A stretch of DNA of 64,000 bases, from contig BAAIJX010000008.1 in assembly GCA_054600435.1 (NCBI GenBank), forward strand, positions 496,001 to 560,000, in the 5' to 3' direction. Under the pieces are notes generated by a model. It saw only the letters and a program-made list of their open reading frames with translations, did no database searches and was not told the DNA's origin. Shown here one piece after another: positions 1-9,395 of this stretch (position 1 is the stretch's first letter; each line of letters opens with the position of its first letter). This DNA is from Neophaeotheca triangularis. Taxonomy: Eukaryota. Both the position numbers and the translations under genes were made by a program.

Positions 1-3000
1 GAAGAAAACAGATAGTAGGTATGAACTAATAGCTATAGACAGCTCATTACTACCTAACATAGATAGCGAAATAGTACCGCTACTACTTGTCTTCTAGAAG
101 TACTACAAGTATGTTATCTTAGATGTCGTGCCTATAGCTAGACATGACATCGTTCTAGGTATACCTTAGCTAGAGCGACATAATCCTATAGTAGATTAGA
201 GAAAACGAGTACTTATATTCGATAGGTATAGTTATATCACTACAACCTACCCTATATGCTAGTAGCGATCGACGGTAGATAAGAGAAGGTAGATTAACGA
301 AACATATCGTTAATCGACTATAATACTAATACGAATTAGATCAGACTCTATAGGTACCGAACTAGCCTAAATAGACTAATAAGTAAGAGTTGAGGAAGGA
401 AGTCATATACCTTTAGATATCCTTAGAGAATTTAGAAAATAGAAGCATCTTTTCTAGGAAGAGGAAGGAGTAGCTACTCTACCTAGACATTAACTATAGG
501 ACTACTGAATCAACATTTAGCCTAGTGCGAAAATACTATAGGGGCCACTTTACGCGCTATCTGAAAAAGAGCTCGAAGAGTAATGACGATAGCTAGATGA
601 AAAAATGAAGAAAGGATAGATTCGACTCTCCACTTTATTAGCTACTTCACTACTGTTTTTCGTTCTAAAGAAAGGAGGAAAATTATGAATAGTCATTGAT
701 TTCAGATGACTTAATGCGATTACTACAAAAAACCGTTATCTACTACCTAACATCGACGAGATAAGAGATCAACTCACCAGTTCACACTAGTTTATTAAAA
801 TTGATCTCCAAGATGCATTCTATTTAGTTAGAATAGTAAGGGGGGAAGAGTGGGAAACAGCTTTTCGAATGCGCTATAGACTTTATGAATTCTAGGTCAT
901 GTCTATAGAACTTATGAACGCCCTAGTAACCTATTAGTAACTTATTAACGACATCCTACGAGACCTACTCGATATTACTATTATCGCTTACATCGATAAC
1001 ATATTAGTCTTCATAAAAGGATCACGAGAACAACATACTAAGGACATACATGTAGTATTCGAACGACTCGATAAGGTAGACTTTAGAATAGTACTAGAGA
1101 AATACGAGTTCTATAAGAAGGAAGTCGACTTTCTAGACTTTATGATTAGTACTACTAGGATCTGAATAGACCTGAAGAAAACTCAATCGATTAAGGAATA
1201 GTCGACACCTAAGTTAGTTAAGGACATTTAAGCATTCCTTAGATTAGCTAACTATAATCGGAAATTCATGTAGGACTATTCAAGGCTCGCTATACCTCTA
1301 ACTAATCTCACGAAGAAGGACACACTATTTATATAGGGAAAGATTTAATAACAATCCTTTAATAAGCTTAAGGAGTTATATATAACTATCCCTATACTTA
1401 GGATGTTTAACCTTAAGAGACCTATCTAAATCGAAACTAATATATCTAATAGAGTAATAGGAGCTTACCTTATATAGGAAGTTGAAAGCAAATGACACCT
1501 TATCGCTTACTTCTTAAGGAAGATGTTACTAGCGGAATAGAACTACGAGATCTATGACAAAGAACTACTCGCAATTATTATAGTATTACGATACTAGAGA
1601 GTGTACTGTAAAGGAGTAACTAGACTAACTATTTACTCGGATCATAAGAACCTACAATATTTCATAACTACTAAGGAACTATTATGCTAACAATGTAGAT
1701 AGTTAGAGCTACTCGGACAATATAAGTTCGATATAGTCTACACTCCTAGAAAGGATAATAGGCACGCTAATATGCTAAGTAGAAGAAGCGACTACATAGA
1801 AGGACACCTTCTATAGTAACACTATATACTAAAAGTTAATAAGGATAGAAGCCTAAGCGCTAACCCTTAGGAATTTAACTTAGTACTACGAGTACTACGG
1901 GATAATACTAAAGAATTCCCTATCGAGTATAGGAAGTTTAGGGTTCTAAACGAAAGGGAACACTAGTGTATCTAGGACTACTATAATAGACCTACTAACA
2001 GACATCTAGGAATCGCTAGAATAGTAGAACACATTAGACATAACTTTGTGTTCCCTAGAATGAGACAGAAGGTCTCAGAATACATTAAGAAGTGTACAAG
2101 CTACTAACAAAACAAATCCTCGAGATATGCTAAATATAGAAACCTATAATTCTAAGAGCTACTAGATCTACTATAGAACGAGGTTATAATAGATTTTATC
2201 GTCAAGTTACTAAAATCTAGGGACCTGTTAATAAGTAAAGACTACGATTCAATTCTAGTCATGGTTAATAGACTTACGAAGTATTCACATTTCGTTCCCT
2301 ATAATGAGATAATCACTATAGAAGAACTCGGATACCTTATTCTCGACAGATTAGTACGATACTATAGCATTCCTATAGTTCTAATTACGGATAGAGATAA
2401 GCTCTTTACATTTAACTACTAGAAGACCTTAATTTTAGTAATTAGAGTAAAATATAAGCTATTAACAGCATTTTACCCTGAAACTAATAGACAAATAGAA
2501 CGCTTAAACTAATCCCTCAAAACATACTTACGACATTATGTTAATTACGCTTAGGACAATTAGGTAGTACTCTTACCTATAGTATAGCTTATACTTAATA
2601 ACAATGTCTCTAAGACAATAGACATAACTCCGTTCTACGCAAATTTCAGAAAAGACCCTAATATGTTTATAGAACTAAAGCTAGGACTACTCGTAGAAAG
2701 AGCCCTATAAATGTCTTTATAGCTATAGGAAGCATATAAGTAGGCGAAAGATAAAATTACATAGTCATAATAGCGACTCGAGTCATAAAGACATAAGGAC
2801 TCCAAAACGGCACCTTAGCTTAAGAAGGGGGATAAGGTATACCTACTCATGAAAAACCTGAAGATAAGGAGACGAACACGAAAACTAGACTATATCAAAG
2901 TCGGACTATTTCTAGTTAAAGAATAAAGAGGAAAAGTCAACTACCTCCTCTAACTCCTAAAAGATGCTAGAATCTACCTAGTCTTCTATATATCCTTACT

Positions 3001-3200
3001 CGAATTAGTAGACCCTAAAACACTAATCTAAGACACCTTTCACTATGATCTACTAGAGGAAGAAGCTAAGTATGAGGTCAAAAAGATTCTAGATAAGGAC
3101 GGTTAGAACTACCTTATGAAATAGAAAGGTTACTATATAAGCGAAAACACTTAGGAACCTAAGGACAACTTACTTAACTACTAGAAGGCCTTATAATAAT
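1..3200 (+). pseudogene. pol: Degenerate pol polyprotein (PR-RT-RH-IN-chromodomain), frame +2
   Basis: All motifs lie in one frame, with stops explainable as CAG/CAA/CGA/TGG mutated by C>T or G>A. The true stop position is ambiguous. Confidence 0.9.
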
Positions 3201-3773
3201 ATTGTTAGGACTGAAATCCTAAAGCTCGGAAGGAAGATCTAAGCCGTCGATAGCACTCTAGTCCTATGTCGATATCTCTAGAATACTAATAAAGCCTAGA
3301 CGCTATATAACCTCAACCCTAGTGTTAACTAGACTTAAGAGATCTTCCTCTAACTAATCTACTTGCTCTAAATCCTCTAACTCTCTAGACACTACGGTTT
3401 CCGTATGACCCTTAGTATAACGAAGCTGTTTCTATAACTACAACTTTTTCAAACGATGCTTGTATAGTTTTTATAAAAGCTCAAGCTCCTCCTCCTTATA
3501 CTCCTCTAACTACTATTATAGTTTATTATGTGAATCTCTCTATTTTTCCTACTTAGGATAACTAAGCTTTATATCACACTTAGTATACCCCTTATATATA
3601 CATTCTGAATACTGACTAGATTGAGCACTAATCACACATCATACTAGTTCGGCCGAAGGTGATTTCCTCGTAGATCGGTAGGCTAAATAGGGTACTATGT
3701 TAGTTGTTCTAGACTTCTCGATTTTAGCTAAAAGATTAAGACATTACTATTTATAGGATAGGGTAGAAGACAT
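3174..3773 (-). pseudogene. Fossil antisense ORF (~199 codons) of the retrotransposon: Zn2Cys6-like Cys cluster followed by a charged, coiled-coil-like region
   Basis: ATG at 3773 and TAA at 3174-3176, with no frameshift. Cys codons 46, 58 and 66 are still TGT; codons 29, 32 and 55 are TAT/TAC, i.e. RIP products of TGT/TGC. De-RIP reading: PCSAC...RCV......RCSECVRKG..KCD, then an E/K/L/Q-rich helix. Confidence 0.7.
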
Positions 3774-3857
3774 TGCGAAACTTAATGACAAAACGATGTA
3801 GGGAATGACGGAACTTTATTAGGCTTTAAGGACGAAGCTAGGCTGAAAGGGGGATAG

Positions 3858-4276
3858 TGTTATGGCTAAGCTAAGTAGAACTAGAATCCCTAGTCTAAGC
3901 TAGGATCTAACCCTAAAGCTTACTAGACACGTGATCTTAGAACTAGCTAAGATGTTTACTTAGACTTCAACTAAGTATACTCGCTTAGACTTAGACTAAG
4001 TCTAAGCTAGGATACTTAGGATTAGTCTAATCCTAAGTATGATAGATTAGTTAAGGACTAATCTAATATGAATCTCCTATATATATAGCTAGTAATATTT
4101 CCTAGGTAGAGATATATGTTCAACTCATGTTATAATCTTACTAAAAGGTCTATAGCGACACTTCATATATCTTTGAAATCCTTATAATAAAGGAAATACC
4201 CTTACTAGCCTTCTTCGATATCTCTCCTCTTCTACTATAAGCTCTACCTATAAGACTACCTTATAGGATCGTAACA
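3858..4276 (+). repeat. 3' LTR (~419 bp) of the Gypsy element
   Basis: Starts TGTTATG immediately after the PPT and ends CGTAACA (inverted termini TGTTA(C)G...CGTAACA). Contains a TATA-like CTATATATATAG at ~4077. Confidence 0.85.
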
Positions 4277-7200
4277 TACATCTATATCTAAGCCCTATAT
4301 TCAGGGATATAGGCTAAGTCCGATAGCTATTCGCTACCTAGCCCGGCTGTTTTCGTTAGCATTACTACAATCTAGCGAGCTTACTAACCTACTAACTCCT
4401 CCTAGACTAGAGACTCGGCTACGAACTCCTAGTAAAAAGAGAAGAAACACTATACGCGTATATAAGCTAGGGATCGTTACTCTTAAGGGTACGCCTCTGT
4501 CGCCGAGCTCGTTAACTAGGGCATGATCCTCTAAGACGAGACTGTCGAAGCCGCTACATAATGATATGTAGAGGGCAACTAACTCTTACTCGACTACGAG
4601 GCTTTAGTTAGCGCTAGTATAGAAGACTAGGAGACATATCCCGGCTTTCGCGCTATACGTGACTAAGTTATAGAAGAAGTCCCCGGTCTTAGCGATAACG
4701 ACATGCTCGACTATACTATATCTCTCCTTACCTAGTAAGAAGTAGGTTTGACTAACTACTTACTACCCTATATAGTTAGTAGCTAGCCTAGAGTACTATC
4801 TTACCTCGTAGAGCTCGACGAGGTTCAGATCATCGTCGAGCCCCTTAAACCTGAGTAGGCCTTAATCTTTCGCGCTTTTCCTAGACACTAGCTCGATACC
4901 CCTACCGAACGAGTAGCGATATAGAACTACGAAGACTTTATAACAGATAATAACGACTACCTAAAGCTATTACATACTTTAGTACTACTTAGAGACGTTA
5001 AACGTTTCCACTTCGTAGTTAACTATTTCACTACTATCTTATCTAATAGGCGTTTCTAAACTCACCTTAAGGTAGTCTCTATTAAGGAGCATGACGGTTA
5101 CCCTTATTTCACTATCCGAGCTATTAGTTTAGTAGTAAGAGATCTCTACTATCACATAACCCTTATCACTATAGTTATAGGAGGAGGACAACTAAACCCG
5201 TTCACTATGACCTATATTAGACCTAACGGTATAGAGTATAAGGGTAAGTTCTACTTACTCTACGATCCCACTACATATACATAAAGCGACCTACCTAAGT
5301 ATACCTATAAGACGGCTCTAAACCTAAGTGACACTTACTACTCTAAATTCTACTTCTACATTTATGCGCCCTTTAATAAACACAATATGCCTCTAGCGTA
5401 TACCGCCCTTAAAGACTACGATGTTTTAGACCTCCTAATTCTCTACTACTTTATGGGCGCACTCTCTATCGATTTCCTCTAGGAATACTACCTAGAGACC
5501 TTTTCCTAGAAGGGTTAGCTACTCCCTATATGCTATTAGCGAGGCCGACTAGGGATCCTCTAGGTATAGAGTAAAGATTAGAGGTATGCCTACATTTAGG
5601 GTATATATATACTCTATAAGAGTAGGTACCTTTTCGACTATCTCGACTACCTTAACGATAATAGGAAACGCATCTAGTTAGTAACTCTAGTTATAGCACT
5701 TACGCCTAGTAGCGGCTAGCTAACAACCCTAGCATGGCCTAACCTTCGTACAAATCATAGACTCTAACGAAGGATAAGAGAGTCTAGCTCTTTAACTATA
5801 ACGATGATCTACCTATTTGCTAGGACCTTATTAGGTAGCCCGAACATGTCGACGTCGACTACGTTAACACTGAGTTCCGCGACTATATAGATAGGTAGTA
5901 AGCGTTACTAGTAGGCTATACTAAGCGCGTCGTCCTAGACAGCGTAGTATAAGTATAGACCTAGTAGAAAAATAATGCCTCCTAAGCGTAGCCTTTTATA
6001 GAGGGAAGAGACGCTATTCTAGAGCTAGATAGGCTAGTCGATTTCTCGTAAGGTAATAGGTACCTAATGTAATGTTTCGCTTTTAACCTAGCCCTACCTC
6101 TAGGCTAGTAAGTCATGACGATAGCCCTAGTTACCTAGATGCCTCTATGCGCTATAACGCCTCGTACTATCGCTAGCTCCGAACTAGGCTTCTAGATACT
6201 ATAGCTAAACTCCCGGGTAAGCGTCAAATCGAGACGCTATATAGCATCTATAAATAAAGCATACTAGGTAGCTAATAGCGCCCGTACCCCCATTACCGTA
6301 ATAGGGTCAATATAAATTAATACCGTCCCTATTCCCTTTAGATATAGACCTAGCGCTATATAACCTTTATTAGCCCAAAACTAGGCGGCGAACCCCTTCG
6401 TGCGCTAGGAAGGATAACAACCTTAGCCATCTTAGGCCCTATAGACTTTCTATAGAGCGTAGTAAGTAGCGCTACCCGTCTAGACACCGTAGAACACCTT
6501 TAGTTTCTACCTACTACACGCTACTACAGTAAGCTCTAACATGTAACAACCGTATATCTAGGCACTAGGTCTCCCCTAGACGCTATAGGCCCCTAGATAG
6601 ACCCATTTCCTATAGTAGTATGTCTAATAATAGACTCATTTCCCGTAGTAGCATGTCTAATAATAGGCGTAATACCTATAGGTATAGTACGGGCTAGCAT
6701 CTTATACACTACAGCCCTAGTTCTAGCCCGCTTAGTCCTAGTATAGTCCCTAGGCGTAAACCCCCTAGACTATCTACTTCGAGTAGCTATTAATGTCAGG
6801 AGCGCTACCCTTTAGTACGCTACAACCTATACCGGTAGCCCCTTAGGCGTAGATTAACTACTAAATCACTAGGTATTTATAGAGCGCCTATAACGACATA
6901 GCCTAGTAGTATGCCTAGATGTAGCTAGACTCGATAGAGGCTTTTAACGCTATACGAGCCGCGCTATAGCGAATAGTATAGGTTAAAACTACTACCGAGT
7001 AAGGTATTAGGGGTAACATCATGATAGTAGAGTAGGTATACATATAGCACGGCCCTATTAACCTAGTATCTTTCCTAGACCCTCTATAAGATTAGGCCGA
7101 CTAGGTAGCTATATAGGACGAGGCCCCGGCTAACGATCCTTATCTAGACAGGCTCGTTATTAACTTCGCTAGCCTCTTTCCTACCCCCTAGCTAGACGTA

Positions 7201-7350
7201 GAGACTCTATACAACATTTATCCTCGCCGTAACCCGGCCTACGTAGTCCGTAAAACTTCAAATAGCGCTATACTATCTTCGCTCGCTAAGCGTAAGAGAT
7301 CTAGCCCTTAAGAAGGGGTTAGCTTACGGTAACTAGGGACCTAGCTCTAG
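4277..7350 (+). pseudogene. RIP-destroyed ~1000-codon gene of unknown family with a Gln/Pro-rich low-complexity region, interrupted at its 5' side by the Gypsy insertion
   Basis: Frame +2 (4277-5680) and frame +1 (5761-~7350) read as protein when TAG/TAA are restored to CAG/CAA. Putative intron 5681-5760 (GTAACT...CTAAC...CATAG). De-RIP examples: QAANPFVRQEGQQPQPSQAPQ, QTHFPQQHVQQ x2 (33-bp repeat, 6598-6663), and C-terminal AKRKRS. Confidence 0.7.
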
Positions 7351-7665
7351 TTATGTATACATATAGGGTTTTTGCTTTTTAAACAGATCGGGCTTCGCTA
7401 CTTACGACAAGACGTAGTCTAACCACTACTACAACCCGTTTCTCTCCTGTTTTCAGTTTTGTTTTACGAGCATTACGTCCTGTCGCTAGAACTAGTCCTT
7501 TTTCTAGCATTTACTTTACGAGCGTCGTATACTATCGCTAGAACCGGTCCTCTATTGTTTCTCCTCCTTATTACTTTCTATACATCTAGCGTTATATACT
7601 GTCGCTAGAACTAGCTGAGTTTTATTCTCTCTAGCGCTACTATAACGTCTACTACTACTTCCTAG

Positions 7666-8227
7666 TGTAACGGAGCCGCGTAAGCTAAGCTAAGACCTTA
7701 TATAGTATTGTCTACCTTTTCTACTAGACATAACTCCTAGTCCCTTAGACTACCCCTAGCTACCTAGACTATCTCTAGCTACCTAGACTTTCACTAGTCC
7801 GCGGTACTCTTAGTAAAGTCTACTAGACTCTCGGTAGTCTCCTAGACTTTTGGTAGTCGCCTAGACTTTCGGTAGTCTCCTAGACTCTTAGTAGTCCCCT
7901 AGACTTTCGATAGTCTCCTAGACTCTTAGTAGTCTCCTAGACTCTTAGTAGTCCCCTAGACTTTCTACATTTCCCTAGACTTTTAGTAGCGCCCTAGACT
8001 CCTAATAGTCCGCTAGACTCAGTCGCTTAGTTAAGGGTAGTAAGGACACTACCTAGTATAGGGGGGGGGGGACTTGTTATAGTAAGAGGCCTCTCCTCCT
8101 CTTTCCTAGCTAAGGAGGGCCTAGCTAGTAGGAGAGGGCCTATCTAGTAAGTACTACCTCCTTACTTGTTTACTACTTGTACCCTATAGCGTAGATAGAT
8201 TAGCTAGACCACTTTACTTCTATTACA
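7666..8227 (-). mobile_element. Probable solo/fragmentary LTR (~560 bp) of a second family, RIP-mutated
   Basis: Termini TGTAACGG and CTATTACA (de-RIP CCGTTACA, the exact inverse). TATA-like CTTATATAG near 7697-7705, an internal tandem array and a poly-G run at 8061-8071. No matching target-site duplication was found. Confidence 0.5.
7823..8020. repeat. 19-bp tandem repeat, ~10.4 copies (CTAGACTYTYRGTAGTCYC)
   Basis: Directly visible period-19 array; most units contain the GACT-N6-AGTC inverted pair. Confidence 0.95.
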
Positions 8228-8257
8228 CATTCTGACTAATTGTCTTAGAGCGTGTTA

Positions 8258-8675
8258 GGCCTCTCGAAATGTAGTGATAGCGGCCTCTTAAAATGTAGTA
8301 ATGGCCTCTTAAAATGCGATAATGTCTCGAAATGCGATAGCCTCTCAAAATATGACGACGGCCTCTTAAAATGTAGTAATAGCCTCTTAAAATACGATAA
8401 CGTCTCAAAATGCGATAGCCTCTTAAAATACGACGACAGCCTCTCGAAATGTAGTAATAGCGGCCTCTCAAAATGTAGTAACGGCCTCTTAAAATGCGAC
8501 AACGTCTCGAAATACGATGGCTTCTCGAAATGTAGTAATAGCGGCCTCTTAAAATGTAGCGACGGCCTCTCAAAATGCGGCGACGGCCTCTCGAAATGCG
8601 ATAGCCTCTCTAAATAACGGTAACCTCTTAAAATGCAATAGCGACCTCTTAGTATTACTATAACTTCTTAGAATA
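8258..8675. repeat. Minisatellite, ~19-21 units, mostly 18/21/24 bp, consensus CTCTCGAAATGCGGCGACGGC
   Basis: Repeated CTCT(C/T)(G/A)AAAT core; copies differ by RIP-type transitions and trinucleotide indels. Confidence 0.95.
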
Positions 8676-9395
8676 TGAGTAGGTAGTTTTAGAATAATAA
8701 ATACCTGTTTATTATAGTAGGATTGTAGGAGGGCTACCTACCTAATACTTAGGGATAGCTTTTGAAAAATGCTAAAAATGAGATTGTTGTTCTAACTATA
8801 ATATGTCTTCATGAAAGAACTCCGAACGACGTTATTGTTCTACCTACAAAATGTGTTATTATTCTAACTACAAAACATAAATCTATAAATCCGATTTTCA
8901 AGAATTGAGATTTCGAAATTCGCTGAAAATGACCCAAGGTAAGTACGGGCAACAGTCTCTACCCCTTGGCCGCCCTACCAACAATGGTAGAGCTTTGCGA
9001 GGTCGCCCAGTGATGAACAACCGACCACCTGGACAACGTTTTGAGACAGTAGCATGTTCGACCGCACTGGCTCTGCATGTCAGATACGGTCATCATGCCT
9101 GCGGAGGCTCCGCTCGCTATTGAAGGTCTACCGATTGGTCTCGCACATGGCTTAGTGCTCAACGAAGACGTCAAACAAGGTCAGGGACTCAGCTGGCAGC
9201 ACGTCGAATGGAGCGAAAAGAGCTAAACCGTAGCCGTCAAGAGAAAAACGGAAGCCGTGTTCCGGAGAGAGAAGACGGAGAGTAAAGCCAACGATTATGT
9301 ACACCGACGGCCGTAAAAACGTCGTCAACGGCATCGACAGCCACAGGAACTATTCTCATCTTGCAAGCCATAGCGTAGCGTACAGCCTTCCCAAA

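Follow-up and report, generated by a model that had tools for sequence, protein, structure and literature searches.

An antisense gene for a Zn2Cys6-like protein is conserved in a clade of ascomycete chromoviruses and is exchanged together with part of the LTR

Introduction

The closest described counterpart of the locus studied here is Boty of Botrytis, a Ty3/gypsy element with a chromodomain which, in the accessible portions of three sources, carries an antisense gene (brtn) between pol and the 3′ LTR (PMC8365987, PMC7264820, PMC4227169). The accessible text of a preprint adds that Boty consensus sequences differ at their ends only (bioRxiv 10.1101/2022.03.07.483234). Antisense ORFs are also described in plant elements (maize Grande gene23, rice RIRE2 and Silene Retand), and the accessible part of a 2020 review describes no assigned function and no clear database similarity for the antisense extra ORFs of LTR retrotransposons (PMC7264820). 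The gene described below resembles brtn in place and orientation, both lying antisense between pol and 3′ LTR, a comparison made by description only; a zinc cluster is not mentioned in the accessible descriptions of brtn (PMC7264820 and others). With the plant ORFs it shares position, orientation, presence in most copies and a proposed regulatory role, whereas those ORFs belong to plant elements and the accessible part of the review does not mention a six-Cys cluster for them (PMC7264820).

The antisense arrangement is thus already known from brtn and is not unprecedented, and the domain may already have been named in Zhao 2011 or in the supplements of the Boty preprint. A literature search outside which most subscription papers, including Zhao 2011, lay listed no description of a fungal LTR element with a zinc-cluster gene, and PMC3248453 and PMC10799480 contained nothing relevant. 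For a third ORF in CfT-1 and skippy this search gave no confirmation. HTLV-1 HBZ and Tax offer a functional analogy only, in that a gene lies antisense near the 3′ LTR or a protein encoded by the element regulates LTR transcription. Homology is not expected; the two proteins of this animal retrovirus are bZIP-like or do not bind DNA.

A RIP-damaged chromovirus with an antisense frame

The window, by which we mean the whole stretch of 64,000 nucleotides analyzed here (G000:C8:496001-560000), lies in a fungal assembly of 25.4 Mb. Bases 1 to 9000 of the window are AT-rich with strong RIP indices, and the remainder is gene-rich. The whole element spans G000:C8:493135-500276 (7,142 bp) and is flanked by a 5-bp target-site duplication. 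Its 419-bp LTRs run from TG to CA, and the 25 differences between them are transitions only. The element was assigned to the chromoviruses (Ty3/gypsy, Metaviridae) on the basis of its RT-RNase H-integrase order, C-terminal chromodomain, TG…CA LTRs, polypurine tract (PPT) and target-site duplication; in the damaged window copy, read with stops as X, the chromodomain match (E = 0.012) is below the Pfam cut-off. Feature coordinates are given in Table 1.

Table 1. Features of the chromovirus in the window
Feature	Position in window	Strand	Basis
pol broken by RIP, from a Ty3/gypsy chromovirus, with RT, RNase H, integrase zinc finger, SH3 and chromodomain (~3083-3187)	2..3253	+	Pfam on X-read frame; end set from less damaged copies as they stand
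gag and 5′ LTR	upstream of window		element coordinates
Antisense accessory gene of type A (199 codons and a terminal stop; 16 stops within the frame)	3174..3773	-	genome copies, homologues
Six-Cys Zn2Cys6-like motif, codons 29-66, first loop of 13 residues, 3 of 6 Cys intact	3576..3689	-	copies; profile match to host clusters
Predicted long helix or coiled coil, ~codons 73-144	3342..3557	-	limits carried over by alignment from natural homologue P0001 (model helix 69-140, block pLDDT 89-98)
Acidic C-terminal tail, low confidence; final ~80 nt overlap pol 3′ end	3177..3341	-	charge of homologues; pLDDT 44-60
Leader of antisense gene, ATG to PPT, within type-specific cassette	3774..3844	-	element comparison
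Polypurine tract	3845..3857	+	sequence
3′ LTR, proximal part (inferred U3), type A-specific, unmatched by blastn in types B to F	3858..4069	+	element comparison
CACGTG E-box in U3	3928..3933	.	sequence
→→←← word array, period 6	3984..4006	.	formal count
Second →→←← array, more damaged	~4015-4037	.	read by eye
3′ LTR, distal part (inferred TATA/R/U5), common to all six types	4070..4276	+	element comparison

A preliminary description of this DNA had reported, on the minus strand, a frameshift-free frame of 200 codons from an ATG at 3773 to a TAA at 3174, with Cys at codons 29, 32, 46, 55, 58 and 66 once RIP transitions were reversed. Both the window sequence and the genome copies agree with it. 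The window copy keeps Cys at codons 46, 58 and 66, and, as was also claimed, the frame is invisible to the ORF track: no ORF of at least 100 aa is listed over its span. The same frame (type A) occurs at 12 places in the genome, as 10 full-length copies without indels, one copy with a 2-nt deletion and one truncated copy. Each of the six positions holds Cys in at least 3 of the 10 full-length, indel-free copies, and in 2 of the 10 all six are present without any reconstruction.

The least damaged type A copies have only 3 to 4 stops. Stops occur at 20 columns in any copy; 19 of these columns are open elsewhere, and at all 20 the copies differ by transitions only. Codon 185 is a stop in 10/10 type A copies, so that type A may have ended at 184 aa or may have been hit before spreading; in other types, some copies are open at the corresponding codon.

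The DNA next to the element, at window positions 4277 to 9000, is also RIP damaged and holds a 19-bp tandem array (~7740-8025) and an array of ~21-bp units (~8260-8660). This interval gave no match to the pol or antisense profiles and may be a relic of a DNA transposon or of a Helitron-like element. The gene-rich part (9200-64000) encodes a pectate-lyase-like beta-helix protein, a P4-ATPase flippase, a ubiquitin hydrolase, a SAC3/GANP protein, ABC transporter exons and a phospholipase D. Elsewhere in the genome, the truncated type A copy (L012, G000:C10:611384-613605) runs into a six-base repeat translating as RVRVRV, which is probably a telomere.

The antisense frame belongs to a conserved protein-coding family

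The search profile was built from six damaged copies with stops read as X. The first profile found 95 proteins and, separately, 1,072 clusters (50% identity; the best 150 were listed), and 183 matches, of which the best 120 were listed, came from a second profile. The named hosts among the matches listed are ascomycetes such as Cercospora, Elsinoe, Periconia, Hortaea, Sporormia, Zopfia, Pseudogymnoascus and lichen fungi. Among the named matches listed in these searches and in cluster look-ups for 30 proteins there was no Botrytis or Sclerotinia name, and viral contigs held no relatives. Pol lies tail-to-tail on the opposite strand in 18 of 19 metagenome loci, which represent the type E subfamily only; the exception is a weak partial match (E = 3e-4). 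The conserved antisense frame that the preliminary description had proposed to look for in intact relatives therefore exists.

The dN/dS analysis that it had likewise proposed also came out in favor of a gene. pN was lower than pS in 66/66 pairs among 12 intact antisense genes, and dN/dS was 0.17 to 0.39 in the 13 least saturated distinct pairs, with synonymous sites near saturation. Third-position transversions in 11 genes amounted to 4 to 10% at antisense two-fold sites and 35 to 38% at four-fold sites, whatever the sense codon. As these substitutions track the antisense code rather than the sense frame overlapping it, the coding strand is the antisense one.

These data bear on the notion that the frame is an artefact, either the shadow of a sense-strand ORF or a product of RIP-biased sequence. 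One sense frame over the same span has its third positions in common with the antisense frame and is indeed equally stop-poor (3 to 5 stops) in the least damaged copies. In the intact genes, however, that frame has stops in 10/11 cases against 0/11 for the antisense frame (the loci having been found via the antisense protein), and the antisense ATG lies 25 to 26 codons ahead of the first Cys in 11/11. The artefact reading is exceedingly improbable, and its shadow-frame form is ruled out by the transversion test. The antisense accessory gene between the pol chromodomain and the PPT is real, element borne and protein coding, and the window copy is a RIP-killed member of a conserved antisense gene family in a clade of ascomycete chromoviruses.

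A captured fragment of a host transcription factor, kept as cargo that alters host expression and has no role in the element cycle, is quite improbable. It would fit the distant kinship to host Zn2Cys6 clusters described below and the annotation of some family members as ordinary fungal genes. Against it stand the position and orientation fixed in 18/19 loci, the diversification into more than 1,000 clusters, and the other Gypsy families of this genome, in which the antisense profiles found no match while the positive control worked. Four database entries of the family carry the automatic name Zn(2)-C6 domain, and some of the short proteins called "Zn(2)-C6 domain-containing" in fungal databases probably come from retrotransposon genes and are not host regulators.

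The protein is Zn2Cys6-like and lacks the Gal4-type reading residues

The protein (165 to 200 aa) comprises a basic N-terminal helix, the six-Cys cluster, a long helix and an acidic tail; the median net charge of the last 50 aa is -7 in 228 homologues, against +7 for the front. In AlphaFold2 models of natural type A homologues, an N-terminal helix is present, each CxxC has its own short helix, and a helix of 72 residues, predicted with high confidence, is followed by a low-confidence tail. A model showing the helices at the CxxC pairs reached pLDDT 90. Models and homologue charge thus agree with the helix after the cluster and the acidic, Trp-containing tail that had been read from the damaged copy.

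The six-Cys motif is complete in 169 of 243 homologues examined, and many of the 74 without it are fragments. All six Cys are invariant in a 72-sequence alignment picked from motif-bearing homologues. The first loop is x6 in 142 of the 169 motifs, x13 in 18 and of other length in 9, so the family overall has the Zn2Cys6 spacing (C-x2-C-x6-C-x5-12-C-x2-C-x6-8-C), as do types B, D and E of this genome, introduced below. Type A of the window falls outside it, with a first loop of 13 residues in the genome copies. The same x2-x13-x8-x2-x7 spacing is found in intact natural homologues that are up to 47% identical (18 with the 13-residue loop, 361 examined). Given the canonical x6 in 142/169 motifs, the long loop is a subfamily insertion: the atypical first loop noted earlier is genuine for type A and is not the norm of the family.

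Kinship to Gal4-type Zn2Cys6 clusters (PF00172; LAC9, LEU3, HAP1) is suggested by several comparisons, each of them sub-threshold. The match to Zn_clus by HMM or structure that the preliminary description had suggested as a check did not materialize for type A: the window copy, two other type A copies and P0001 gave no Pfam Zn_clus match (cut-off, 21 bits), and fold matches were sub-threshold. A type B copy scored 12.3 bits, below the cut-off, and the best homologue reached E = 4.2e-4. Zn_clus was the commonest Pfam match, in 23 of 38 members at E ≤ 1. Alignment of profiles to host clusters with hhalign gave a probability of 50 to 56% (E ~1e-4), with the six Cys in register. PDB sequence matches included LAC9 (E = 0.06) and LEU3 (E = 7.9), the rest being mostly helical stretches. 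The top ESM Atlas cluster (0.96) is named Zn(2)-C6 and is maybe the query's own cluster. Foldseek returned no match at E ≤ 0.001 for either model. A wide fold search was filled by coiled coils when the full model was used; with a 96-aa natural fragment the best Z was 3.2, tied by HAP1 (1hwt; rmsd 8.8, 66 aligned) and bHLH proteins. Homodimer prediction for P0097 (residues 1-150) with zinc scored 0.44, against 0.53 for the control.

Like Gal4-type factors, most members have the six-Cys spacing, a helix starting at each CxxC, a downstream helix and an acidic tail. Unlike them, the antisense protein is too short for a middle homology region, has an extra N-terminal helix, and is encoded by a retrotransposon; the window's type also has a 7-residue insertion and no Pfam match. 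The first-loop Lys pair and the Pro are missing as well. Lys or Arg occupies first-loop positions 3 and 4 in 5% and 18% of one set of homologues (n = 204) and in 2% and 2% of another (n = 51), and Pro precedes the fourth Cys in 0% of 255 homologues, whereas Lys at position 3 and the Pro are present in 8/8 host clusters. Conserved basic residues are instead placed after Cys 5. In Gal4, the first-loop lysines (and the Pro) have a role in CGG reading. Their absence indicates that the antisense protein is not a regular member of the Gal4-type family, and it appears unlikely from its sequence to read CGG in the Gal4 manner. The proposed accessory gene is thus upheld as an element-borne antisense coding gene with a six-Cys cluster, although not as a regular Gal4-type factor, and its product is best named Zn2Cys6-like.

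Gene, leader and proximal LTR form an exchangeable cassette

At 18 of 30 genome loci only the chromodomain end was matched, and 18/18 of these carry a homologous antisense frame with the same end point. Besides type A, five further types were distinguished (B, 4 loci; C, 2; D, 6; E, 5; F, 1), and their antisense proteins are 19 to 29% identical to that of type A. Pol is common to the 20 elements compared: transversions number 3.8/kb within types (34 pairs) and 5.8/kb between types (156 pairs), climbing to 14/kb at the 3′ end of pol. The distal LTR is likewise common to all types. In comparisons of type A with the others, gene, leader and proximal LTR gave no blastn match beyond short edge matches. 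We conclude that the gene, its leader and the proximal half of the LTR move as a single cassette that is exchanged between gag-pol backbones, a point absent from the preliminary description.

In other fungi, pol and antisense identities are uncorrelated (rho 0.11; 66 non-independent pairs). The pair L041/L045, for example, is 94% identical in pol and 62% in the antisense protein, and L031/L036 is 53% and 78% identical, respectively. In retroelements, U3 is copied from the 3′ end of the RNA, so a single template switch where pol ends is enough for the exchange. Since one such switch yields exactly this structure, linkage of gene and U3 alone is no proof of functional pairing. Cassette exchange also offers a reason why Boty-like elements share their center and differ at their ends.

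Three loci (L051, L065 and L066) contain elements of one cassette type nested in the pol of another type, an arrangement that would favor exchange. Type C (L057 and L058) has the most distinct pol, at 7 to 11 transversions per kb from the other types, and its distal LTR also differs slightly; it is the oldest or least homogenized backbone.

The U3s carry arrays of mirrored words

In many of the U3s a pair of (C/A)TCR words precedes a mirrored pair (→→←←). The pattern was defined by eye, post hoc, on the same sequences as were counted. Arrays were present in 13 of 19 U3s, three of the 19 being copies of type A, where 0.1 was expected from shuffles and 2.2 from permuted orientations. Those with an array were 7 of 11 distinct metagenome elements and types A, B, C and E; types D and F and the other 4 of 11 metagenome U3s had none. 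The metagenome set leaves out 8 of the 19 loci (four near-duplicates, three without an LTR and one false match). No array was seen in 17 controls, comprising 11 downstream LTR or leader stretches and 6 LTRs of two other Gypsy families (five of these six from one family). The array period is 6 in type A, 10 in types B and C, and 8 to 9 in this genome's type E and in 6/7 metagenome elements, the one remaining E-type element having a period of 6.

Other candidate signals fared less well. The spaced palindromes that ranked highest in U3 included no CGG/CCG pair. A palindrome whose single fixed spacer held for every type was not found; several spacings were enriched in E-type U3s, homologous control regions also gave z values up to 14, and the six U3s of this genome were little above shuffles. 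A prediction that E-type proteins go with TCGA-rich U3s failed on test. A TATA-like word 41 to 46 nt before the ATG was present in only 6/11 intact elements, and that of the window is missing from one copy with less damage; it was therefore set aside. Some 15 to 25 nt before the LTR edge (window ~3814-3832) there is a GAGGAC-like word flanked by a short palindrome; it is seen in 11/11 intact metagenome elements and in type A, in leaders that are otherwise unlike.

The arrays may be common by descent, or may be RNA hairpins or sites for host factors. The CACGTG E-box, which we take to be a candidate site for a host bHLH protein, occurs in 9/11 metagenome U3s.

Proposed role of the antisense protein

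Gene and U3 traveling as swappable units suggest a self-encoded regulator. From such sequence comparisons we give an about even chance to the reading that the antisense protein regulates its own LTR, acting on U3 through the arrays. In this model the antisense transcript would start in or beside the 3′ LTR and yield a divergent, Zn2Cys6-derived regulator. The protein would bind the repeated (C)TCR…YGA(G) words of its own U3, probably as a dimer or higher oligomer, and would tune the element promoter, the acidic tail being suggestive of activation. Linker and helix would set the word spacing, as they do in Gal4, Ppr1 and Put3. Because the types differ in spacing (A, 6; E, 8 to 9; B and C, 10), each protein might act mainly on its own LTR, and such type-matched action would account for the persistence of several types on a single backbone.

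A more far-reaching version is possible, although doubtful as a whole: in this large chromovirus clade of ascomycetes, Zn2Cys6-derived regulators might have exchanged CGG half-sites for (C)TCR ones, each regulator fitting the array spacing of its own U3, with cassettes swapped as a specificity code against free-riding elements. The antisense gene family now has an identified domain, is proven to be under selection at the protein level, spans more than 1,000 clusters and has a candidate U3 target with type-specific spacing; that target makes function testable by binding assay and reporter.

Several of the same observations would also fit a protein that does not read the LTR. On that account, which we consider rather unlikely, the zinc module and coiled coil would serve as an anti-silencing factor or adaptor whose partner is host chromatin, the machinery of RNAi or of RIP, or else the particle or integrase of the element itself; the diversity of cassettes would reflect an arms race with the host, and the arrays would serve host factors or RNA structure. 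The replacement of the Gal4-type base-reading residues by conserved basic residues after the fifth Cys is in line with it, as are a cassette that has diverged far more than pol, the host-type E-box in most U3s, and the lack of an array in 4/11 intact elements. Yet cassette boundaries always take in U3 and the array period varies by type; both facts are compatible with an adaptor, and neither is required by it.

The antisense unit could also serve self-restraint, a reading that we regard as unlikely. Here it would limit copy number through a repressor that blocks U3 or sequesters host activators, through antisense RNA pairing with the 3′ end of pol, or both. HTLV-1 HBZ is a repressor-type precedent. 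The tail-to-tail overlap of the final ~80 nt of the frame (3174-3253) with pol is consistent with pairing of this kind; in the accessible part of the review, dsRNA regulation is proposed for antisense ORFs (PMC7264820), and Boty gives small RNAs according to the accessible text of the preprint (bioRxiv 10.1101/2022.03.07.483234). RNA alone leaves the selection at protein level unexplained, however, and the tail, acidic and with Trp, is more suggestive of an activation region.

Other Gypsy elements of the genome

A single element with few stops (L070, G000:C31:221500-231400), whose pol is ~60% identical, gave no antisense-profile match and no LTR pair within the stretch examined. A second Gypsy family (L072, L074 and L076; e.g., G000:C24:231500-241400), whose pol is ~33% identical, has ~2.5 kb between integrase and 3′ LTR and gave no match to the zinc-cluster profiles. 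In this family (L076, 1246-3736), antisense stretches of 200 codons are nearly stop-free and include a Lys/Arg-rich segment; the family probably carries a different antisense accessory gene.
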